Of a stretch of DNA of 64,000 bases, positions 3,071-34,263 are shown piece by piece. This DNA comes from Oliverunavirus OLIVR1 (lineage: Duplodnaviria > Heunggongvirae > Uroviricota > Caudoviricetes > Schitoviridae): positions 1 through 64,000 of IMG/VR virus record IMGVR_UViG_2974724996_000001. One strand, given 5' to 3'. Positions within the stretch are counted from its first letter, which is position 1. Every line of letters begins with the position of its first letter. The notes under the pieces were generated by a model that was given only the letters and a program-made list of their open reading frames with translations, ran no database searches and was not told where the DNA came from. Position numbers and translations under genes: made by a program.

Positions 3071-3137
3071 ATCGCTGTAGCTCAGCCCGGTAGAGCATGT
3101 GCGCACAAGGTCGCTGGTTCAAATCCAGTCAGTGATG
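3071..3137 (+). tRNA. tRNA-like element, degenerate (no canonical anticodon arm)
   Basis: Acceptor atcgctg/cagtgat (one G-U), perfect D-arm gctc-agcccggta-gagc and T-arm gctgg-ttcaaat-ccagt, but only 15 nt (palindrome tgtgcgcaca) where the 17-nt anticodon arm should be; total 67 nt. Confidence 0.35.
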
Positions 3138-3524: not shown

Positions 3525-3959
3525 TATGGTTGTAAATGAAACCTCCTCATCATGTTCAAAACAAAGCAGTTCGTCCTTCATGGAAACAACTTTTCCGTGA
3601 ACTTAAATGCTCCATCTCTGGACATGTTTTCTATGTGGCATGGGGGAATGGCTACCGTGGTTTACCTCAGTCTCATTGTTTTTGTTGTGGTGTCAAAGGT
3701 CCTTCTGCCATTCCTTCTTGCGAAGAGTGGATAGAACCTATCGGTTGAACCAAAGAAATAAACTACTCCCCGAACGAAGTGAGGGGAAAATTACTTCCAC
3801 TAATATTAATTCGTCCATGAATAATGGATGATAGCCGGGGTAGCCCAAGCACAAGGCAAGAGGTTCTGTGAACAACGGAGATAGTGTGAGTAGGGTGGCT
3901 GATCTTCCTTTCAAGGATGCTCATTCACGAGTCTCACCCCCGGCACCAATTTAATCAAA

Positions 3960-11012: not shown

Positions 11013-11129
11013 ATTTAAGGACATTGTCATGAGATATGTGATCACCGCAGCCGCAGTGCTGATGATTATCTACATAATACTGCAATAGTTTTTTGTGCTC
11101 AGACAGAACAATTGGAAAGGTAAACTGCA

Positions 11130-11486
11130 ATGTGTGATCGTTGTGTTGAAAATTTGAAAGTGCTTCCTCCGGAATTGCTTCCTCTTCTTGAGAAGCACAG
11201 AGCAAAAATCACCAAGCTGATTGAAGAAATGGATACTGATTTGGCTGAAATAATCGCCGAAGCGAAGATCAGTGATGATGCTTCTCCTGAAGAACTGGTA
11301 TTTGCTCAACAGCAAATCCTCAATACGAATAAGGCACTGTCCTTGATTGGCGTAGTCGCTTACGCGATTGCTGCCAATAATCACGATCCATACATCGTAG
11401 AGGACCTGATCCATGCCACCGGTCAGATGGCAATGGTCGGTCATTACAAATTCGGAGAAGAAGCATTCCTCCGAAAACTCAATTGA
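11130..11486 (+). CDS. hypothetical protein
   Basis: 118-aa ORF, RBS ggaaagg. Confidence 0.5.
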   Translation: MCDRCVENLKVLPPELLPLLEKHRAKITKLIEEMDTDLAEIIAEAKISDDASPEELVFAQQQILNTNKALSLIGVVAYAIAANNHDPYIVEDLIHATGQMAMVGHYKFGEEAFLRKLN

Positions 11487-11493
11487 GGACATC

Positions 11494-11844
11494 ATGTTTA
11501 AAAAACTGAAAGCATGGAGACGTAAGCATTGGCCGACCCAGATTGAACAGTTTCAGGACGGTGATGCCTTTGCTGCTGAAGAAATCAGCAAATACGGTAT
11601 TCACGATGGCGTCAATGTCATCATGAGTTTGCCTTCCAATAAAAGAAATGCCTTCGATAGAGGCATGATCAATCACGCAGAAAGAGCCATGGCTCAATAC
11701 CATGCTGGCTGGAAATGCGCCGATCAAATCATCGAAAAAGCATCTTATCATGTCGCTGTGGAGGTGATTACTCGTAAAAATCCCGCCAATAATCCTGCCT
11801 ATCAAAAAGGCATGGAAGACAGATTGCTGAAAGAACAGCCATGA
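11494..11844 (+). CDS. hypothetical protein
   Basis: Start set to ATG 11494 (RBS gagga) within track ORF 11413-11844. Confidence 0.45.
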   Translation: MFKKLKAWRRKHWPTQIEQFQDGDAFAAEEISKYGIHDGVNVIMSLPSNKRNAFDRGMINHAERAMAQYHAGWKCADQIIEKASYHVAVEVITRKNPANNPAYQKGMEDRLLKEQP

Positions 11845-12408: not shown

Positions 12409-12629
12409 TGGACAGCGTTAGCGACTGGCCATTCAACCCCGCAGGAGGCATCTTTGTTACTGTGGCTGGAAACAATAGCTTTGGGATTAGTAAGGATAAT
12501 CGGCTTATCCATTTTCCTACTAATGGAACAAACTCAGAAGAGGTTAAAGACCTCGGGCCTGCTACGGCCAGAAACATCGAGTCGCTTAAATACGCTCTTG
12601 AGCGACTTGCTATCCACTCAACAGACTAA
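12408..12629 (+). CDS. hypothetical protein
   Basis: 73-aa ORF; protein-like composition, preferred over the overlapping 5' extension of the next ORF. Confidence 0.4.
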   Translation: MDSVSDWPFNPAGGIFVTVAGNNSFGISKDNRLIHFPTNGTNSEEVKDLGPATARNIESLKYALERLAIHSTD

Positions 12630-12648
12630 TGATCCAAAGGAGAAAGCC

Positions 12649-13464
12649 GTGGACTTGCAGACTGCACAAATCGATATGGAGAAAATGTTCCATAAAAACC
12701 AGCTTCATAGCCGGATTAAAAAGGAATTCGTAAACTCAGATATCGACTTCCGGACCGCTTTTACTGAGATCGGTATTGATCATAAATTCGGGTTCGACCT
12801 ACTTGTGCAAATGGTTCTGTATAAGCGTGTCAACCTCCCAACGCTTGTTGGTATCCTGCGTCGTCATTATCAGGGCGATTGCCAAAAGACCGCTGACGCT
12901 CTCTTGACGGCAGCAAAGCACAATCTAGTTGATTGGGCTGCAAACATCGAAGTCTTCATCATTCGCTTTGATATTGATGCTGAAGTGATGAATGAAATTG
13001 AAGTCTATCAATACCCACTTCCCATGATTGTGGAACCAAAGGAACTGAGGAACAACCGTGACACAGGTTACTTCACTAAAAAGGACTCTGTGATCCTCAA
13101 GAGCAACAACCATCATGATGACGATGTGTGTTTGGATTTCTTGAATAAGATTAATAAAGTAAAGCTCAAGGTCAATTCTGACACTGTAGCTTTCCTCAAA
13201 AATAACTGGAAGAACCTCGACCGTCCAAAGCCCGGTGAAGAACGTTCAGAATATCAGAAGCGTGTCAAGGCTTTCAACAAATATGACCGGACTTCCAAAG
13301 ATGTCCTGACTCATTTGGAAACCATGGGTGGAGAGTTCTATCTTACCCACAAATATGACAAGCGTGGCCGTGTTTATTGTCAAGGTTACCATGTAACTTA
13401 TCAAGGTAATGACTGGAACAAAAGTTGTATAGAATTTGCGCATGGAGAGTTAGTTGAAGACTAA
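12649..13464 (+). CDS. T7-like single-subunit RNA polymerase, small subunit (N4 RNAP II p4A-like, N-terminal half)
   Basis: GTG 12649 with RBS aaggag; 271 aa ending ...YDKRGRVYCQGYHVTYQGNDW..., matching the T7 RNAP DWRGRVYAV...NPQGND region; stops where 17656-18867 resumes the alignment. Confidence 0.7.
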   Translation: MDLQTAQIDMEKMFHKNQLHSRIKKEFVNSDIDFRTAFTEIGIDHKFGFDLLVQMVLYKRVNLPTLVGILRRHYQGDCQKTADALLTAAKHNLVDWAANIEVFIIRFDIDAEVMNEIEVYQYPLPMIVEPKELRNNRDTGYFTKKDSVILKSNNHHDDDVCLDFLNKINKVKLKVNSDTVAFLKNNWKNLDRPKPGEERSEYQKRVKAFNKYDRTSKDVLTHLETMGGEFYLTHKYDKRGRVYCQGYHVTYQGNDWNKSCIEFAHGELVED

Positions 13465-13978
13465 GAAATTACCGCCACAAGATTACCTTATCGAACGGCT
13501 CTATTATGATCCGGTATCAGGTTGCCTCTGGTGGCGGGAGCATCCTGCCATGCACAAGAGGTGGAACAATAGGTACGCTAATCAGCGTGCCTTTACTGCT
13601 CAAGATAAGAAAGGTTACCATGTAGGTGCAATAAACGATGTGCAGTATCGAGCTAATCGTATCATCTTCAAAATGCTCTACGGTTACGACCCTATTCAAG
13701 TAGATCACGATAATGGGGTCACTAATGATGATCGTGTAGTAAATCTTATCGAAGTAACCCACACAGGTAATCAACGAAACATGAAACTATCCAAGGCCAA
13801 TAAGTCAGGGGTAGTTGGTGTTTCGTGGAATACTGAAAAAGATATGTGGGAAGCCACCATCGGCATTAAAGGTAAACGTGTCGTGATTGTCCGTTCGCCC
13901 AATAAACAAGTTTGTATTGACGCTCGTCGTCAAGCCGAAATTGATGAGGGATATCATCCCAGTCATGGAAAACGATAG
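13454..13978 (+). CDS. HNH homing endonuclease with AP2 DNA-binding domain
   Basis: TTG start overlapping the upstream stop; VDHDNGVTNDDRVVNLIEVTHTGNQRN is the HNH_3 motif; GVVGVSWNTEKDMWEATIGIKGKRV is AP2-like. Confidence 0.8.
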   Translation: MKTKKLPPQDYLIERLYYDPVSGCLWWREHPAMHKRWNNRYANQRAFTAQDKKGYHVGAINDVQYRANRIIFKMLYGYDPIQVDHDNGVTNDDRVVNLIEVTHTGNQRNMKLSKANKSGVVGVSWNTEKDMWEATIGIKGKRVVIVRSPNKQVCIDARRQAEIDEGYHPSHGKR

Positions 13979-14333
13979 TGGAGTTCGCTCATGGGGAACT
14001 CTTGGAGGATTAATGCCTAATCCTGGTAACCATCCCAAATGCCCTCGTTGTAAAGGCGAGGGCTTCTACCTTGCCTATGAGGGCAAGGGATACATGTATG
14101 ACGGTTCCTTCTCCCACAATCGGTGGGAGGACTGCCGCTGTTACCCTGAGATAAAGGAGAGCGAATTGCCTCGCTCCCTCGATCCGCCGCCAATTTATAC
14201 CATTGTGCATCATCCGAAGAACCCGAAGCAATGGTACTGGCTCATCATTCACCGTGATCGGAGAGGCTCCTTTAGGCGTCCTCAACGTATCCACACATTG
14301 GGATTGGATGGAATAAGTGGAGAGTGTTTCTAA
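13965..14333 (+). CDS. zinc-ribbon protein (CPRC...CRC)
   Basis: Start set to ATG 13965 in track ORF 13887-14333; two Cys pairs. Confidence 0.35.
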   Translation: MENDSGVRSWGTLGGLMPNPGNHPKCPRCKGEGFYLAYEGKGYMYDGSFSHNRWEDCRCYPEIKESELPRSLDPPPIYTIVHHPKNPKQWYWLIIHRDRRGSFRRPQRIHTLGLDGISGECF

Positions 14334-15469: not shown

Positions 15470-15586
15470 ATGTTCTTCAAACTCATCGGGGTCATTGTGA
15501 TCCTCGTCACCTTGGTAGTAGGGGCTTACTGGTTAGCCACTAATATCGGTTTCAACAAGAACCAGAAAACAAAGAAGAGGAAGTGA
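15470..15586 (+). CDS. tiny single-pass membrane peptide (38 aa)
   Basis: ATG 15470 with RBS aggagaa; MFFKLIGVIVILVTLVVGAYWLATNIGF then a lysine-rich tail; immediately precedes the SPFH gene. Confidence 0.4.
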   Translation: MFFKLIGVIVILVTLVVGAYWLATNIGFNKNQKTKKRK

Positions 15587-15591
15587 CTCAA

Positions 15592-16440
15592 ATGAGTCTG
15601 CGTTCAATCATCGGCCTGCTGTTTGCAGGTATTATCGGAGTAATCACCCTTGGCGTCATCGGCGGATCGTTCTATACGGTCGATGAAGGTGAAAAGGCAG
15701 TCATCCTCCGTAACGGTGCCGTCACCGGCATTGCTACTCCCGGGTTTCACTGGAAAGCTCCTTTCCTCGACTCAGCCGTGGACATCTCCCTGCGTGACGA
15801 GACGATCACCTTCGATGAAGTCAAGGCTTACACCAAGGACAGCCAGACAGCGACCGTGCATCGTATTTCCATCACCTACCGTGCGAAGCCCGGTAATGAT
15901 GACGTGCTTGCCATATATAGCCGTTATGGCTCGGTTAAGAATGCTGTCAGCCAGATGGTCACACGTCGCGTCAGCGAGTCCCTCGAAACTGTATTCGGCC
16001 AGTTCACTGCCGACACAGCAATCAAGGAGCGTGAAAAGCTTGGTCAGGAATTCTCCAAGCGTATCCGCAACATTGATGGTCCCGTTGAAATCCTCTCTGC
16101 TCAGATCGAGAACTTCTCTCTGCCTGACAGCTATGAGCGGAACATCGACGCCAAGATGAAGGCTGAAGTTGCTGAAAAGCAGGCGGAAATCGATAACCGT
16201 ACAGCGGTTGCCAATGCCAACGCTGCTGCCACTGTCAAGAGGACAGAGGCTGATGCCTCTGCCCATGCTGTTCGGGTGCAGGGCGAAGCTGAAGCTGCTG
16301 CTCTCCGTGCCAAGAACGATGCCATCAAGGAGTCTCCGAACCTGATTGAGCTTACAAAAGCTCAGCAGTGGGATGGAAAACTCCCAACTACATTCGTTCC
16401 CGGATCGGCTGTTCCATTTCTGAACCTGCCATCTAACTAA
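15592..16440 (+). CDS. SPFH/band-7 (stomatin/prohibitin/HflKC-like) membrane protein
   Basis: N-terminal TM helix followed by ...YTVDEGEKAVILRNGAVTGIATPGFHWKAPFLDSAVDISLRD... typical of SPFH domains; alanine-rich coiled-coil C-terminus. Confidence 0.7.
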   Translation: MSLRSIIGLLFAGIIGVITLGVIGGSFYTVDEGEKAVILRNGAVTGIATPGFHWKAPFLDSAVDISLRDETITFDEVKAYTKDSQTATVHRISITYRAKPGNDDVLAIYSRYGSVKNAVSQMVTRRVSESLETVFGQFTADTAIKEREKLGQEFSKRIRNIDGPVEILSAQIENFSLPDSYERNIDAKMKAEVAEKQAEIDNRTAVANANAAATVKRTEADASAHAVRVQGEAEAAALRAKNDAIKESPNLIELTKAQQWDGKLPTTFVPGSAVPFLNLPSN

Positions 16441-16509
16441 ATAACCTTTTTGGTTTCCTGATCTACGGATCAGGTTTCCCAACAAGTTACTCAAATAAGG
16501 AGACAAGTA

Positions 16510-16701
16510 ATGGCTGAACCAAAGGAAATACCCACATATACAGCGATGTATTATATAGAAGCTGGTTATCTCCACAAAAAATCCTTCATCGGTAACGACC
16601 ATGAGGACGTGCTGAAACAGATCAAGGCCGACGAAGGCGACAAAGTCGAGATCGTTGCCATCTGGATCGGGGACATTCCTGATCCCATTTGGATTGGTTA
16701 A
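16510..16701 (+). CDS. hypothetical protein
   Basis: 63-aa ORF, RBS taaggag. Confidence 0.45.
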   Translation: MAEPKEIPTYTAMYYIEAGYLHKKSFIGNDHEDVLKQIKADEGDKVEIVAIWIGDIPDPIWIG

Positions 16702-16704
16702 GCT

Positions 16705-16983
16705 ATGGATCCTCAGCATTACCCTACACTGTCTACATATCGCCGTAGGAAGCTCAGGGAAGCGTATGTCGAGGAACAAGAGGGCAAGTGCCACCACTGC
16801 CATCAACCCCTCTCAGGGGAGCCAAATCAAAAGGTGAGACGTGCTTCTATTAATGAGAGCCGTTTTCCTGTTGGCTTCTTCAAACATCCTGTCCATCTTC
16901 ATCATAATCACAATACTGGTATGACCATCGGTGCGGTCCATGCCAAATGCAACGCAGTCTTATGGCAGTATCATGGTGAGTAA
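16705..16983 (+). CDS. endonuclease VII-like HNH nuclease
   Basis: CHHCH ... HLHHNHNTGMTIGAVHAKCNAVL matches the endonuclease VII family pattern (CxxC ... DHDH.TG..RG.LC..CN). Confidence 0.6.
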   Translation: MDPQHYPTLSTYRRRKLREAYVEEQEGKCHHCHQPLSGEPNQKVRRASINESRFPVGFFKHPVHLHHNHNTGMTIGAVHAKCNAVLWQYHGE

Positions 16984-17655
16984 ATGGTCAACTGAGACTG
17001 CCTTAAAAGCATCCGGAATACGGGTTCCTCTGAACCCGTTCAAGAGGAAACGGAAACGCAATCAGCAGGACCGGTTCCTCAACAAGAGGGAAGCATCTGA
17101 GCATCCTTCTCATCACGCGAAAAGGTGAAAAATGTTCGAACTGACGGCGATCCGTCTAAGTAGTGATCGATGGTGAAGCAGGAGAGGCACGCAGTCTTTG
17201 CGCAATAACCTAAACTGGTCATGAATGACAGTTACTGGTCTTTGAAAAGAAAGTAAGAACTCATAAAGAAACGATTAGCTCTTGATCGATGTCAAGGCCA
17301 CGAAAGGGTGGTTACCTTAAATTCCAAAAGAGTTGTCATCCAAGGATGGAGACGATTTCCGGTCTCTGCAAAACCGGTACATATAGCCAAAACCACATAT
17401 GACGCTAGGTCGTGGTAGGCATTTGTCGCTCAGCCCATTTGGGTATTCGGAGTGAGAACTACTCTAGGCCCGCTAACTGCCCTCATCAGTAAAGCCCGCC
17501 AATCATCATCAGGTGACTCTACGATCCAGCAACACTGCATGTATGAAATACGTGTAATGCTATGACGATAGCAACGGGAGCACGTCCCACGATACAGTCA
17601 CTGCTGCGATCAATAGCGCCATCGCTATTACTGAACCTATTAGTCTAATAAGGAG
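16984..17655 (+). other. 672-bp ORF-free region immediately upstream of the RNAP large-subunit gene
   Basis: No ORF over 30 codons with an RBS on either strand; many local inverted repeats; ends at RBS taaggag. Confidence 0.4.
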
Positions 17656-18867
17656 ATGACTATGTTTGAAACCTTCACTGCCAAGCAGTACCTGAAGATC
17701 GATATCGCCAACAACTTCGGTGATAACCTTGATAAGGCCCTGTGGCAGGATCGTATCAAGTGGTTTGATGACAATGAACATCAGCTTGAAGCAATTGCCA
17801 AGAATGCTGATGAGCCTGCTCTTTATTGTGCAGGTGTACGAGCATGGCGTAATGCCCAAAAAGGCAACGTCAACCATTACCCAATCTCTCTGGATGCAAC
17901 ATCATCCGGAATTCAAATTCTGTCTGCACTCACCGGTGACCGCAAGGGAGCCGAAGTATGCAACGTAGTGGATGTTGGCGAGCGACGTGATGCCTACAAA
18001 TTTCTCTATGAAATCATCGTCAAGAAGATCAACGGCACTGCCAAGATCGACCGCAAGGATACTAAGCGGGCTATCATGACGGCTTTCTATAATTCTGAAG
18101 CTGTTCCGAAGGAGGTCTTTGGAGAAGGTCAATTGCTCACCACCTTCTACGAAACCATGGGTGAAGAGGCTCCCGGTGCGTGGGAACTTAACGAAACCAT
18201 GAAGGACCTCTGGAACCCAAAAGCTCTTAGCAATGACTGGGTTATGCCTGACAACTTCCATGTTCACGTAAAAATCATGGGCCAACAAACTGATTATGTT
18301 CAGTTTTTAGATAAACCCTATGAAGTAACCTATGCAATCAATACCTGCATCGAAAAGGGTCGTTCATTAGGCGCTAACATGACGCACTCTATTGACGGCA
18401 TGATCGTTCGTGAAATGGTTCTGCGTTGCAACTACGACCAGAAGAGCATTGTATGGCTTCTTGGTCTGTTGGAAGGCAAAGCCTCTATCGAAGCGAACCC
18501 AGAAAACAGTAAAATGATGCAGACACTCTGGGGTCATTATACTGACTGTGGTTTTCTCTCCGCACGTATCCTTGACTATCTCGATGATGAGTCCATCAAG
18601 TTGGTCGATAAAGTCGTAATCTTCGATCTTATTGCAAGTCTTCCGAAACATCCTTTCGAAGTTATTGCAGTACATGATTGCTTCCGTTGCTTGCCAAACT
18701 ACGGCAATGATCTTCGTCGTCAATATAACCAGCTTCTTTCCAATATTGCCAAATCTGATTTGCTTAGCTTCTTGCTTTCGCAAATTATAGGTAAACTGGT
18801 AAAGGTTGGTAAGCATGATCCAGAACTCTGGAAAGACATCCTCGAAAGTAACTACGCACTTTCTTAA
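17656..18867 (+). CDS. T7-like single-subunit RNA polymerase, large subunit (N4 RNAP II p4B-like, C-terminal half)
   Basis: 403 aa; ISLDATSSGIQILSAL (T7 LAFDGSCSGIQHFSAML), KRAIMTAFYNS (motif B KRSVMTLAYGS), NMTHSIDGMIV (NFVHSQDGSHL), IAVHDCFRCLPNY (motif C HDSF). Confidence 0.85.
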   Translation: MTMFETFTAKQYLKIDIANNFGDNLDKALWQDRIKWFDDNEHQLEAIAKNADEPALYCAGVRAWRNAQKGNVNHYPISLDATSSGIQILSALTGDRKGAEVCNVVDVGERRDAYKFLYEIIVKKINGTAKIDRKDTKRAIMTAFYNSEAVPKEVFGEGQLLTTFYETMGEEAPGAWELNETMKDLWNPKALSNDWVMPDNFHVHVKIMGQQTDYVQFLDKPYEVTYAINTCIEKGRSLGANMTHSIDGMIVREMVLRCNYDQKSIVWLLGLLEGKASIEANPENSKMMQTLWGHYTDCGFLSARILDYLDDESIKLVDKVVIFDLIASLPKHPFEVIAVHDCFRCLPNYGNDLRRQYNQLLSNIAKSDLLSFLLSQIIGKLVKVGKHDPELWKDILESNYALS

Positions 18868-18875
18868 TACCTTGG

Positions 18876-18905
18876 CCTCACACTTCGGTGTGGGGTCTTT
18901 TTAAT
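18876..18905 (+). terminator. rho-independent terminator
   Basis: cctcacac-ttcg-gtgtgggg then tctttttaattt. Confidence 0.7.
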
Positions 18906-18933: not shown

Positions 18934-19290
18934 ATGTTAATGGAAAATCGAGAGGCAATTCTTGCTCGTATTACTGACCGTATATTAATCCAAGATTTAG
19001 GCTTTCTCCTGAATGGAGTTCCTAGCCCTTGTCATATTTGGCAAGGTGGGACTTCAGGAAACGGCAGAGGCGGTGGCTACGGACGGATGTCCCTGTACGG
19101 ATGTACTACAGCGGTTCACATCGTCATGTGGCGACTTCACAATGGTCCTATCCTGCCTAAAAGGCAAATTGACCATATGTGTAATAACCGCCTCTGCTGT
19201 AATATTCTTCACCTTCAAATGGTGACCAATCTCAAAAACCAAAGGCTTAGAGCCAAGAGAGCTAAGGAGGCTCTATACTACCATGTCTGA
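18934..19290 (+). CDS. HNH homing endonuclease (HNH_3 type)
   Basis: 118 aa; G..GYGR...G...AHIVMWRLHNGPI...IDHMCNNRLCCNILHLQMVTNLKN. Confidence 0.75.
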   Translation: MLMENREAILARITDRILIQDLGFLLNGVPSPCHIWQGGTSGNGRGGGYGRMSLYGCTTAVHIVMWRLHNGPILPKRQIDHMCNNRLCCNILHLQMVTNLKNQRLRAKRAKEALYYHV

Positions 19291-19356
19291 CAATGTTCTC
19301 GCATACGGCCTGCTGTTGAGCAGGTACAGGCAATTCAAAAACATCTGTACTAAGTG

Positions 19357-19390
19357 AAGCCCTCCTAGAAATAGGGGGGCTTTTTTATAT
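19357..19390 (+). terminator. rho-independent terminator
   Basis: agccctcc-tagaaata-ggggggct then tttttat. Confidence 0.7.
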
Positions 19391-19947: not shown

Positions 19948-21027
19948 ATGGATGCCTCTGAAATTAATCTCTATCGCGGTTCTATGCGTCAGGTCCGTTA
20001 CTGGATCGGACGTGCTCTGAAAGTAGGGCTTATCCCTATGGTTCAGGGTTCCCCAGGCATTGGTAAGTCTGCCATGATCCGTGCAACCGCCAAGGACTTG
20101 AACCTCAAGGTTCTTGATGACCGTGTGGCCACTAACGGTCCAGAGCATTATTCCGGTTTGCCGGATGTCTCTGGTAATAAGGCTGTCTACAAACCATTCG
20201 ATGTGTTCCCGTTGGAAGGTGATCCACTGCCCAAAGACGAGAATGGCAACGAAATGGCAGGTTGGCTTCTCTACTTGTCTGAGTTTAACTCTGGTCTGCC
20301 TACCACCCTCGTAGGCGTCTACAAGCTCCTTCAAGAACGTGAAGTGGGTCAACGTCCGCTGCACAGCAAGGTATACATCGTTGCTGACGGTAATCGTGAT
20401 GAAGACCGTGCAATTACTCAGGCACTTGGTTCAGCGCTTCAGCGTCGTCTTCTGTGGCTTGAGGCATTTGTTGACGGAACCCAGCCGACTCACTTCGATG
20501 ACTTCATGCAGGATGTTGCCATCCCGCAGAAGTGGAATACCAAGACTGTTGCCTTCCTGAACTGGAAGCGGGCATATTTGAACAACTTTGATCCTGAACA
20601 TAAGGATAAGACGTTCGCTTGCCCGGGTACGTGGGAATGGGTCTCTAAGCTCTCTGATGACGAAGAACCCATTGCAGCCGATGCACCTCTTTATTGCGGT
20701 GCCGTTGGTCCTGTTGGCGTTGAGTACGTCAATTTCTGCGAAGAGTTCGGCAATCTGCCTGATCTTGCCAGCATTCTTGCTGACCCCCGCACTGCACCTA
20801 TCCCGGATGCCACAGAGAGCCAACGTCAGTGGGCTATTATCGGTATGCTTATCGATGAAACCACTGACAAAAACTTGTCTGATCTCGGTGACTATGTAGA
20901 TCGCTTCTCTCTCGAATTCCGTATCCTGTACTGGCGTTCGGTTCAGATCAAGCATCCGCATTTGCGCCGTGATCCGGCATTCATTCGTGCACAGACTGCA
21001 CTGGCACGCTACCTGTTCGGAGAGTGA
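19948..21027 (+). CDS. MoxR/CbbQ-like AAA+ ATPase
   Basis: Walker A VQGSPGIGKS, Walker B-like KVYIVAD; paired with a downstream VWA protein as in MoxR-VWA modules. Confidence 0.65.
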   Translation: MDASEINLYRGSMRQVRYWIGRALKVGLIPMVQGSPGIGKSAMIRATAKDLNLKVLDDRVATNGPEHYSGLPDVSGNKAVYKPFDVFPLEGDPLPKDENGNEMAGWLLYLSEFNSGLPTTLVGVYKLLQEREVGQRPLHSKVYIVADGNRDEDRAITQALGSALQRRLLWLEAFVDGTQPTHFDDFMQDVAIPQKWNTKTVAFLNWKRAYLNNFDPEHKDKTFACPGTWEWVSKLSDDEEPIAADAPLYCGAVGPVGVEYVNFCEEFGNLPDLASILADPRTAPIPDATESQRQWAIIGMLIDETTDKNLSDLGDYVDRFSLEFRILYWRSVQIKHPHLRRDPAFIRAQTALARYLFGE

Positions 21028-21028
21028 T

Positions 21029-22234
21029 ATGACCCATTCGATGCAGACACTTCAGAGAGAGCTTGACCGATGCAAATCGGTCATCCTGCTGCATCGCGGT
21101 GAGGCTCATCTCGCACACTTGCTCTTCTCCACCAGTATCATCTGGGCAGAAGATGCGGTTACTGCATATATTAATGGTTTCATTATTGCAGTAAATCCGA
21201 ACTACTTCATGAAACTGCCTACGTCTTCAAGAGAAACGTTGATTGCCAGCCTTCTCTGGAAACTTGCTATGCTTCATCTCGTCCGTGGACAAGGTAAAGA
21301 TGCTTGGCTCTGGCAGATGGCTTCAAGCTATTGGGTCAATAATGAACTCCATAGTCGAGGTTACTCGTTCGATGGAATGACCCCTTGGCTTGATCATCGT
21401 TACGATGGGCAGGCTGTTGAGGAAATCTACGATGACCTCGTTCTTCGTGAAGAGCAGGGAACTTTGGATGATCCACAAGCATTGTGGGGAGCCTACGACG
21501 ATGACGGTAATTATGACGTTACCGATCTAAGGCACCCTACTGAAGGTAAAATGATGGCGGGTTCTCCAGTCCCCCCTGTTGATCCTTCACTTGCTCAAAA
21601 GATGACTACCGCTGTAGTGAAAGCAGTTCAGTACGCTGCTCAAGCAGGCGGTGGTTACAGTGGATCAACTCCTGTAGCAGACATGGTAAAGCAATTCCTC
21701 AATCCCAAAGTTAATTGGGAAAGAGAAGTTCTGCCTTTCATGACTGCACAGGAAGGATGGGACTATAACTGGCAGATACCCAGCAGACGCATCAGACATA
21801 CCTACCTACCTTCGCTTGCAAAGAGTAGTCAAGGTGGTCTGGATCACATTGCGTTCATGGGTGACAGTTCTGGTTCTATTACCAAAGCCCAACTTGTCCG
21901 TATCAATTCAGAAGCTCACTTCATCAAGAAGCGTTTCAATCCCGAGCTATTCACCATGTTGAATTTCGATGACGAAATTCAGATGGAAAAACGAATGACT
22001 CGTTATGACCGTTTCGATGAAATGGAAGTAATCGGAAGAGGTGGTACAGACCTCTGGTGCGTCCGTAATTGGATTATCAAGAACAAACCCAAGGCTGTAG
22101 TAGTCTTTTCGGATTTGGTCTGTGATCCGATGGTTGCACTGGAACCAAAGGATATGGTCCCGATATTGTGGATCGTCTTTAATAACCCCGGTGCCGTGGT
22201 TCCCCATGGTCGGGCAATCCACATCAACGAGTAA
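21029..22234 (+). CDS. VWA (von Willebrand factor A) domain protein
   Basis: Start set to ATG 21029 overlapping the upstream TGA; MIDAS motif HIAFMGDSSGSIT (DxSxS). Confidence 0.6.
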   Translation: MTHSMQTLQRELDRCKSVILLHRGEAHLAHLLFSTSIIWAEDAVTAYINGFIIAVNPNYFMKLPTSSRETLIASLLWKLAMLHLVRGQGKDAWLWQMASSYWVNNELHSRGYSFDGMTPWLDHRYDGQAVEEIYDDLVLREEQGTLDDPQALWGAYDDDGNYDVTDLRHPTEGKMMAGSPVPPVDPSLAQKMTTAVVKAVQYAAQAGGGYSGSTPVADMVKQFLNPKVNWEREVLPFMTAQEGWDYNWQIPSRRIRHTYLPSLAKSSQGGLDHIAFMGDSSGSITKAQLVRINSEAHFIKKRFNPELFTMLNFDDEIQMEKRMTRYDRFDEMEVIGRGGTDLWCVRNWIIKNKPKAVVVFSDLVCDPMVALEPKDMVPILWIVFNNPGAVVPHGRAIHINE

Positions 22235-34148: not shown

Positions 34149-34162
34149 TCCCCTGTTTCATA

Positions 34163-34263
34163 ATTGAGTGGCAGAGTGGCTTAATGCTGACGCGAAGGAA
34201 GACTGGATGGGTGAGCTACGCCTCTATACTCGCCAGCCGTGGGTTCAAATCCCATCTCAATTT
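34163..34263 (+). other. tRNA-like element (acceptor aattgag/ctcaatt plus T-arm gtggg-ttcaaat-cccat), 101 nt, too long for a canonical tRNA
   Basis: Seen in sequence; the 70-nt region between acceptor and T-arm has no canonical D or anticodon arms. Confidence 0.3.

Follow-up and report, generated by a model that had tools for sequence, protein, structure and literature searches.

The window analysed here is the 64,000-nucleotide (nt) stretch of IMG/VR record IMGVR_UViG_2974724996_000001 that represents the left 64 kb of OLIVR1, an N4-like Agrobacterium phage of the Schitoviridae, and the GenBank annotation used is that of Agrobacterium phage OLIVR1 (MT234338), to which the 3-kb segment 16000–19000 of the window is 100% identical at unchanged coordinates. 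A non-coding gap of 678 nt was observed on the plus strand at 16984–17661, between an open reading frame (ORF) of 92 amino acids (16705–16983), which matches recombination endonuclease VII (EndoVII) in Pfam weakly and below threshold (E = 5e-4), and gp57 (17662–18867, plus strand), which encodes the large subunit of the N4-type heterodimeric RNA polymerase II (RNAPII; PF00940, E = 1e-17) and has a Shine-Dalgarno sequence AGGAG (17651–17655) ahead of its start codon ATG at 17662. Judged by sequence comparison, the 3' part of this gap is one copy of a previously undescribed structured RNA family of Rhizobiaceae phages, with a secure core at 17304–17623. No paper on this RNA was found in the literature, and the family is new, while its general kind, the structured phage leader or non-coding RNA (ncRNA), is already known.

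A first-pass annotation of the region, made from the sequence, had described it as ORF-free, unusually long and rich in structure, and the first two of these descriptions hold. No ORF longer than 47 amino acids was detected wholly within the gap by the ORF scan; the four ORFs that GenBank places there (gp53c–gp56, 33–47 amino acids) have no Pfam match; and the largest overlapping ORF (65 amino acids, overlapping the EndoVII stop codon) has tblastn relatives only in OLIVR1–3. Codon-usage log-odds, scored with a model trained on 13 long ORFs of the window, are below zero in all six frames across 17000–17600 and above zero in frame in both flanking genes. A hidden gene or pseudogene was rejected on these Pfam, tblastn and codon results, and the protein-coding gene that the first-pass annotation had named as a possible refutation was thus not found. 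As to length, every other gap between annotated coding sequences in the first 30 kb is at most about 200 nt, and N4-like relatives exhibit only 22–144 nt of non-coding DNA before the same RNAP2 gene.

In a sensitive blastn search against the phage collection, approximately 17416–17626 matched non-coding gaps of unrelated Autographiviridae of Rhizobiaceae, these T7-like carriers including Agrobacterium phages Alfirin, Atu_ph02 and Atu_ph03; Rhizobium phage Paso; and the integrase-bearing TM34/RHEph15/Y48 group. A weak plasmid match revealed a further copy on Sinorhizobium plasmid pLM21S1, which as a query retrieved the 116–122 kb Rhizobium phages V1VFA-S, B1VFA, RHph_X66 and RHph_N1_10, of which V1VFA-S encodes ParA/ParB and resembles a phage-plasmid. 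A pattern derived from the pLM21S1/V1VFA-S group matched 23 IMG/VR loci, 16 of them carrying the other modules of the element as well; seven identical GC-rich IMG/VR loci in which the other modules are absent (L033, L037, L039, L044–L047) were discarded, as were metagenome loci L009 and L010 and IMG/VR loci L014–L017 as chance or coding matches, the metagenome matches being chance ones in coding DNA. Two pattern scans of 185,579 representative bacterial genomes for the B1 module described below returned nothing. The element of each member occupies a gap between coding sequences and is oriented with the surrounding genes. A B1 covariance model detected exactly one copy per sequence in the 64-kb window, the complete genome of Atu_ph02 and the initial 50 kb of V1VFA-S, and none in the RNAP1–RNAP2 regions of three N4-like relatives. 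The sequences fall into groups A, B and C. The genes upstream of the element are syntenic within the T7-like phages only, no neighbour is common to the T7-like group and either OLIVR1 or group C that could represent a conserved protein partner, and Pfam was uninformative. The OLIVR1 and Alfirin copies are alignable from about 17143 to 17650 (approximately 480 nt) with blocks of 100% identity, and since the closest copy belongs to a T7-like phage of the same host genus, the OLIVR1 copy was probably gained by recombination with an Atuphduovirus-like T7-type Agrobacterium phage.

The most conserved part of the element is the B1 module (17425–17459, plus strand), which reads GUCG-CUC-A-GCCC-AUUU-GGGU-AUUCG-GAG-UGA-GAAC. 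Its outer helix Pa comprises 6 bp (UCGCUC at 17426–17431 with GAGUGA at 17450–17455), followed inwards by a 1×5 internal loop (A17432 opposite AUUCG at 17445–17449) and an inner helix Pb of 3–4 bp (GCCC at 17433–17436 with GGGU at 17441–17444) that closes the loop AUUU, and a conserved flank GAAC follows on the 3' side; in many members the tetraloop is GNRA-like (GUAA, GCAA). Across 26 distinct sequences, in an alignment fitted to the model, 91.5% of cells are paired (100% in Pa) and compensatory changes were observed in 6 of the 10 pairs, such as U-A to C-G, or GCCC/GGGU to GUCC/GGAU, CUC/GAG or CCGC/GCGG. None of 500 shuffles reached the observed values, and sliding the partner strand reduced pairing to 31–56%. 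The same picture was obtained from a 13-sequence MAFFT alignment without model fitting, and RNAalifold found B1 independently. Two G·U pairs of B1 are invariant or nearly so. Since the opposite strand would have C·A mismatches in their place, the functional molecule is taken to be RNA and the functional strand the plus strand, for which the GNRA-type loops speak as well. The unpaired bases of B1 are near-invariant, as are the loop bases of the B0 hairpin described below.

The 3' domain (17512–17623, plus strand) is a long interrupted helix that closes a variable apex. From the outside inwards it is composed of P1a (GGUGACUCUA at 17512–17521 with UAGCGCCAUC at 17614–17623); an internal loop between P1a and P1b (C17522 opposite AA at 17612–17613); P1b (GAUC at 17523–17526 with GAUC at 17608–17611); a bulged C17607 between P1b and P1c; P1c (CAGCA at 17527–17531 with UGCUG at 17602–17606), which has 5–6 bp and differs in almost every lineage; a conserved internal loop (ACACUGCA at 17532–17539 opposite GUCAC at 17597–17601, with ACACURCA opposite GUCAC in group A); and P2 (UGUAU at 17540–17544 with AUACA at 17592–17596), for which UGCA/UGCA occurs in Alfirin and Paso and UGAUG/CAUCA in Atu_ph02 and Atu_ph03. 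The P1 strands, approximately 90 nt apart, thereby make a helix of about 20 bp, and the two conserved blocks seen in the alignments, box and tail, are the two strands of P1a. Among 22 distinct sequences 92.3% of cells are paired, compared with 26–41% in slid controls; compensatory changes are present in 13 of 19 pairs; and covariation reaches 0.454 against 0.135 ± 0.019 in shuffles, a comparison that was also made in a 10-sequence version. Unguided RNAalifold runs on five group A sequences predicted P1a to P1c and P2. Conservation stops sharply at the last base of P1a. An alternative hairpin, AAUAGCG-CCAU-CGCUAUU at 17612–17629 (plus strand), is possible according to the minimum free energy (MFE) fold; it reuses the 3' strand of P1a and so excludes P1a, and at the same position Alfirin, Atu_ph02 and Atu_ph03 can form UAGAGC-CACC-GCUCUA. 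Taken together, these patterns indicate that a conserved plus-strand RNA structure is very probably real.

Folding energy gives a different picture. Compared with 20 shuffles, the whole region exhibits z-scores of −4.1 on the plus strand and −5.35 on the minus strand, and in 200-nt windows the gap reaches −1.3 to −2.0, which is ordinary for the OLIVR1 genome, several coding windows attaining −3 to −6. Because the 200-nt energies match the background, the structure claim was based on covariation among homologues. The first-pass description as structure-rich is therefore upheld for the 3' half of the gap, where homologues covary, and does not extend to the folding energies; a flat structure prediction, which that annotation had proposed as a refutation, would mislead here, since the energy prediction is unremarkable and yet the structure is real by covariation. 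In local folds between 12 and 22 kb (plus strand, 40 shuffles), the strongest signals were located at 14000–14199 within gp46 and at 19000–19199 within the homing endonuclease gene gp58, each with z of about −6.2.

Further small modules lie upstream of the 3' domain and of B1. The B0 hairpin AAGG-GUGGUUA-CCUU (17304–17318, plus strand) was read by eye from the alignments; its GG/CC core is constant, its outer pairs vary (GAGG/CCUC, AUGG/CCAU, UAGG/CCUA, AGGG/CCCU), and the loop is GUGRYUA in most members, the pairs being unscored as MAFFT placed the loops out of register. A variable hairpin CAUAU-(11 nt)-AUAUG was seen by eye at 17380–17401 (plus strand), shortly upstream of B1, and homologues have hairpins of different sequence at a comparable position, such as GGCC-AUAUA-GGCC, GAGAGC-UAAAC-GCUCU and CGCAC-GGUAU-GUGCG. 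These two hairpins, P2 and the alternative tail hairpin were delineated by inspection. A sub-module consisting of AGCCUAAG, a short GC hairpin and then CAGC is located between B1 and the box in TM34 and inside the P1 apex in IMGVR8 and Y48, and this difference in position between phages suggests that peripheral domains are shuffled within the RNA. Homology with Alfirin starts, in both pairwise and multiple alignment, at a hairpin GACGG-CGAU-CCGUC (17143–17156, plus strand), whose Alfirin equivalent is GGCG-ACA-CGCC. It is followed by a block GATCGATGGTGAAGCAGGAG (17165–17184, plus strand) that is identical at 20 of 20 positions between OLIVR1 and Alfirin; in Alfirin (about 2310–2330) this block opens an annotated ORF of 34 amino acids (MVKQEGY...) and in OLIVR1 the frame stops after 12 codons, and it could be a remnant of a small ORF or a further RNA module. 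The first approximately 160 nt of the gap (16984–17142) have no BLAST homologue outside OLIVR1–3. They contain an 8-bp GC-rich hairpin, ACGGGUUC-CUCU-GAACCCGU, at 17020–17039 (plus strand; from the sequence and the MFE fold), which lies 37 nt past the EndoVII stop codon, has no U-tract and was not called as a terminator.

Known RNA families and signals were searched for across the region. With Rfam 15, the whole window at gathering threshold yielded tRNAs only; 16400–18300 at E ≤ 10 yielded three chance matches resembling small nucleolar RNAs and nothing else; and six homologous loci at E ≤ 10 gave no match at the element. The families considered, including group I and group II introns, GOLLD, ROOL, 6S, Y RNA-like, ToxI, ROSE and alphaproteobacterial small RNAs, thus gave no covariance-model match, and the Rfam comparison suggested by the first-pass annotation identified no family. 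No tRNA or transfer-messenger RNA (tmRNA) was detected within 16984–17661 by ARAGORN or Rfam. Elsewhere in the window, ARAGORN reported a tRNA with a 4-nt anticodon (ccta) at 40274–40350, and Rfam reported a 102-nt tRNA-like match, possibly with an insertion, at 34162–34263 and a tRNA at 3071–3137 that was missed by ARAGORN and GenBank.

The first-pass annotation had also considered a middle-promoter region for the RNA polymerase (RNAP) gene, and this found no confirmation. The promoter and terminator scan detected no sigma-70 promoter or intrinsic terminator inside 16984–17655, and clear terminators are present only after gp57 (18874–18897) and after gp58 (19356–19383). The early promoter of the N4 virion RNAP is a DNA hairpin with a stem of 5–7 bp and a 3-nt loop; no perfect hairpin with a stem of at least 5 bp and a loop of 3 nt was found between 16819 and 17637, the only nearby one being the AT-only TATTA-GTC-TAATA at 17638–17650. 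The sequence CATCCAAGGATG at 17337 was rejected as an N4-type promoter, as its loop measures 2 nt (alternatively 4 nt, on a stem of 4 bp) and it is unrepeated elsewhere. Two further identities of the small modules were examined. A ToxI-like antitoxin or pseudo-ToxI was rejected, no tandem or direct repeats of about 34–36 nt being present. The group B box resembles ToxI over about 12 nt and no further; the beginning of the ToxI repeat is attested in three ToxIN papers. The B1 module is 35 nt long, starts with GUCGC and ends with GAAC, features that prompted its reading as a solitary repeat of the CRISPR (clustered regularly interspaced short palindromic repeats) type, Racr-like; this reading is weakened by the larger conserved RNA and by the 1×5 internal loop, and the pattern scans found no arrays matching B1 in the 185,579 representative genomes.

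The position of the element relative to the downstream gene was similar in many of the genomes. A downstream ORF could be called in 21 members, and its start codon is 9–15 nt past P1a in 7, 34–41 nt in 7, 62 nt in one (Paso) and 102–110 nt in 6, the last being the distance to the next ORF in the V1VFA-type phages; in OLIVR1 the best start of gp57, ATG at 17662, is 38 nt past the end of P1a. In TM34 and IMGVR8, read by eye outside this scripted count, an ATG is located roughly 16 nt beyond P1a, and the Shine-Dalgarno sequence spans the point where the helix ends. In most members, 0–30 nt separate the 3' strand of P1a from the Shine-Dalgarno sequence. No terminator follows the element in OLIVR1 according to the scan, and no hairpin plus U-tract was seen in the aligned tails of the homologues.

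As conservation ends at P1a without a terminator and an ORF starts soon after, a cis role is favoured, in which the element would act as a structured leader of the downstream ORF; on these sequence grounds a probability of roughly 0.45–0.5 is assigned to it. The region would then be transcribed from the plus strand as part of an early transcript running into gp57, and the RNA would fold as a row of the B0 hairpin, the variable hairpin, B1 and the 3' domain, so that some 20 bp of helix would border on, or lie within, the site where ribosomes land ahead of the next ORF. Opening, cutting or binding of this helix could gate translation or fix a stable 5' end of the mRNA. The binder would be a factor recognising the invariant loops of B1 and B0, and the cutter, by conjecture, an enzyme of the RNase III type, which needs about two turns of double-stranded RNA. 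In OLIVR1 the gated gene would be the large subunit of the middle-gene RNAP, so that the timing of the early-to-middle switch might be affected. Of the first-pass suggestion of a large ncRNA or a regulatory region of the RNAP gene, what stands is a conserved multi-hairpin plus-strand RNA in the 3' 320–480 nt, placed as a leader of that gene. The element resembles riboswitch and translational-operator leaders in being a folded RNA just upstream of a ribosome-binding site with no terminator between, and in group A the possible alternative hairpin that competes with P1a adds to the likeness with riboswitch leaders; unlike them, it has a variable interior inside the closing helix, where the most variable part of P1 is found, it lacks a conserved ligand pocket, and its downstream genes do not belong to one functional class.

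Several observations weigh against the leader interpretation or the structure on which it depends. The genes that follow the element have nothing in common, being an RNAP subunit, a holin, an AAA ATPase, small proteins of unknown function and a small ORF with integrase, and such a mixture is unusual for a cis-regulator. In V1VFA-type phages the promoter-like motif CCGCAn-N17-TAAAAC...TCATCAA precedes the element and recurs between it and the next gene, an arrangement that an independent RNA gene would be expected to show. The conserved unpaired bases and the single copy fit a specific RNA–protein partner as well. RNase III-type cutting is a conjecture; folding energy by itself leaves the region indistinct from the genome background; and 16984–17142 falls outside the RNA-element account. 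On the side of the alignments, the 26 B1 sequences were aligned by fitting them to the model, and the variable interior of the 3' domain (60–120 nt) was removed manually, which left MAFFT with the two strands only. Because the sequences share ancestry, their independence is overstated by the shuffle statistics. In V1VFA-S the motif CTAAAACTnnnTCATCAA, preceded by CCGCAn-N17, is found at 11129–11146, 11566–11583 and 21615–21632, and its copies stand upstream of the RNA element, the AAA-ATPase gene and gene 035; this motif is probably a phage promoter or leader. The same phage has another non-coding gap, of 1.2 kb, at 20437–21680.

A trans-acting ncRNA gene, expressed early, perhaps freed by cleavage of the P1 stalk and binding or sequestering a host factor particular to Rhizobiaceae (such as a ribonuclease, an RNA chaperone or a protein of a defence system), is a possible but rather doubtful account of the same data. 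It is favoured by the unrelated downstream genes, the single copy per genome, the V1VFA arrangement of the element between two copies of the promoter-like motif and the spread within one host clade: the carriers are Rhizobiaceae phages of at least three unrelated lineages with no protein neighbour common across lineages, and such an RNA would explain exchange among unrelated phages of one host clade, as it would fit the near-invariant unpaired bases of B1 and B0 and the placement in early regions. It is opposed by the lack of a terminator or defined 3' end in any member, by the ribosome-binding site of the next ORF, which is within 0–30 nt in most members, and by the absence of the B1 patterns from the representative bacterial genomes, which leaves no evident host RNA that is mimicked. 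A related proposal, similarly doubtful, is a mobile RNA device of one host clade, expressed early, whose B1 and B0 loops bind a Rhizobiaceae factor, for example to act as a decoy for an RNA-sensing or RNA-cleaving defence or to commandeer a chaperone or ribonuclease of the host; the N4-like, T7-like and phage-plasmid lineages would then have captured it independently for fitness in these hosts. Among known phage RNAs, GOLLD and ROOL are comparable in being phage-borne, several hundred nt long and modular, with a conserved core and variable peripheral stems, and in occurring in unrelated phages; unlike them, the present element gave no covariance-model match at E ≤ 10, is smaller (about 320–480 nt), has no association with tRNA clusters and is limited to phages of Rhizobiaceae hosts. 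The lambdoid nut and HK022 put sites likewise place RNA modules of small hairpins in early leaders, where they are cis-acting, and the inner hairpin of B1 (GCCC-GNRA-GGGU) recalls boxB, as the group A tail CGCUCUAACAA recalls boxA; unlike nut and put, the boxA-like string is found in group A only, no N-like protein is present, and the OLIVR1 early genes are presumably read by phage polymerases rather than by host RNAP.

Three other explanations appear less probable still. In the early mRNA of T7, RNase III sites (R0.3, R1.1) are formed, as in the processing stalks of ribosomal RNA (rRNA), by an interrupted helix whose distant strands enclose an insert, and the element might have as its sole role the cutting of a polycistronic early RNA at a comparable processing or stabilising site. 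P1a, P1b and P1c together give 19–20 bp with a 1×2 internal loop and a 1-nt bulge kept by covariation, which is the size class of RNase III substrates, the conserved loop and bulge and the location between cistrons of an early transcript are shared with the T7 signals, and the pairing of distant 5' and 3' segments around a variable insert is shared with both. Such a sole role is nevertheless improbable, as the element is a single copy per genome by the B1 marker (the 3' domain alone was not searched) where T7 has many sites, as cutting has no need for B0, B1 or about 35 nt of near-invariant sequence, which is strongly conserved across unrelated phages, and as spread without flanking genes is not expected of it. 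A DNA-level element, meaning a replication origin, a recombination or phage attachment (attP) site, a promoter of a phage RNA polymerase or a homing-endonuclease target, is very improbable. To its credit, the group A box TTAGGTGACACTA matches 13 nt of the SP6 promoter exactly, a 12-nt 'attL' is annotated inside the element in TM34-type records, and an EndoVII/HNH-like gene adjoins the element in OLIVR1; but an SP6/T7-type promoter at 17510–17525 was rejected, since this segment is one strand of the covarying helix P1a and a single copy, TTAGGTGACACTAC occurring once in the whole Atu_ph02 genome with up to 3 mismatches allowed and the OLIVR1 version once in the window. Promoters of the T7/SP6 type have a consensus of about 23 bp that recurs at many places in the genome of the phage encoding the matching polymerase. 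Between groups A, B and C the box and the tail change together, as paired strands of a helix do (alignment pairs 6–15 with 49–58). The invariant G·U pairs, which the other strand could hold only as C·A mismatches, and the orientation, which is always with transcription, also oppose a DNA-level function. An attP site was rejected since most members, lytic ones among them, are without integrase and the B1 patterns are absent from the representative bacterial genomes; in RHph_Y48 a weak tmRNA-like fragment (Rfam E = 0.013) directly follows the integrase gene at 3810–3865 on the minus strand, and this fragment, not the 12-nt 'attL' that the annotation places within the element, probably represents the genuine attP core. 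Lastly, a decaying coding remnant or a random functionless spacer is hardly credible: the 5' 160 nt without homologue, the ordinary MFE z-scores and the GATCGATGGTGAAGCAGGAG block, with its longer frame in Alfirin, agree with it, but compensatory changes in more than 20 distinct sequences from three phage lineages cannot arise by drift, and there is neither a coding signal nor protein homology. A spacer is accordingly contradicted for 17304–17623 and possible for 16984–17142, and the first-pass idea of a mobile-element remnant gained nothing, as no sign of a decayed gene or transposon was seen.

The neighbourhood of the gap was also examined. The RNAPII small subunit, gp44 (12523–13464), lies 4.2 kb upstream of gp57, and between the two are an HNH endonuclease, several hypothetical genes and an SPFH/band-7 gene. 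In the nearest relatives by gp57 (62–64% identical), Ochrobactrum phage ZX86, Sinorhizobium phage ort11 and Rhizobium phage RHph_Y2_6, the RNAPII subunit genes are also apart, with 1–2.5 kb of unrelated small genes between them. As the inserts of the relatives are unrelated and coding, the slot is considered hypervariable in the N4-like rhizobiophage clade and the long non-coding stretch particular to OLIVR1–3; the 3' end of an inserted cassette, as the first-pass annotation put it, is hence correct in so far as there is an insert between the subunit genes, and the slot is a hypervariable one rather than a single cassette. Three nuclease-like genes were observed around the RNAPII genes, namely the HNH_3 endonuclease (13454–13978), the EndoVII-like ORF and the annotated homing endonuclease (18934–19290), and this cluster fits a mobile-DNA hotspot at the slot. 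GenBank puts the band 7-like protein on the minus strand (15604–15750 and 15772–16803), while a plus-strand ORF at 15583–16440 (285 amino acids, MTQMSLRSIIGLLFAG...EGEKAVILRNG), which overlaps those calls, looks like the real SPFH/band-7 gene from its sequence; the minus-strand ORFs gp49c–gp54c probably represent false antisense calls.

In GenBank the region is occupied by spurious ORFs of 33–47 amino acids, and the module is without an Rfam family; for a new RNA family, more than 25 distinct sequences that clearly covary can serve as a seed alignment. The OLIVR phages are in biocontrol development, and a functional RNA outside their annotation is worth knowing. If the interpretation given here is true, a portable RNA module of about 300–500 nt, hidden by present annotation, is common to phages of rhizobia and agrobacteria, and the element before the RNAPII subunit offers a testable handle on the early-to-middle timing of OLIVR1, while its exchange among unrelated lytic and temperate phages of one host family would make it a candidate for an RNA that interacts with the host or counters its defences, of which few examples are known.

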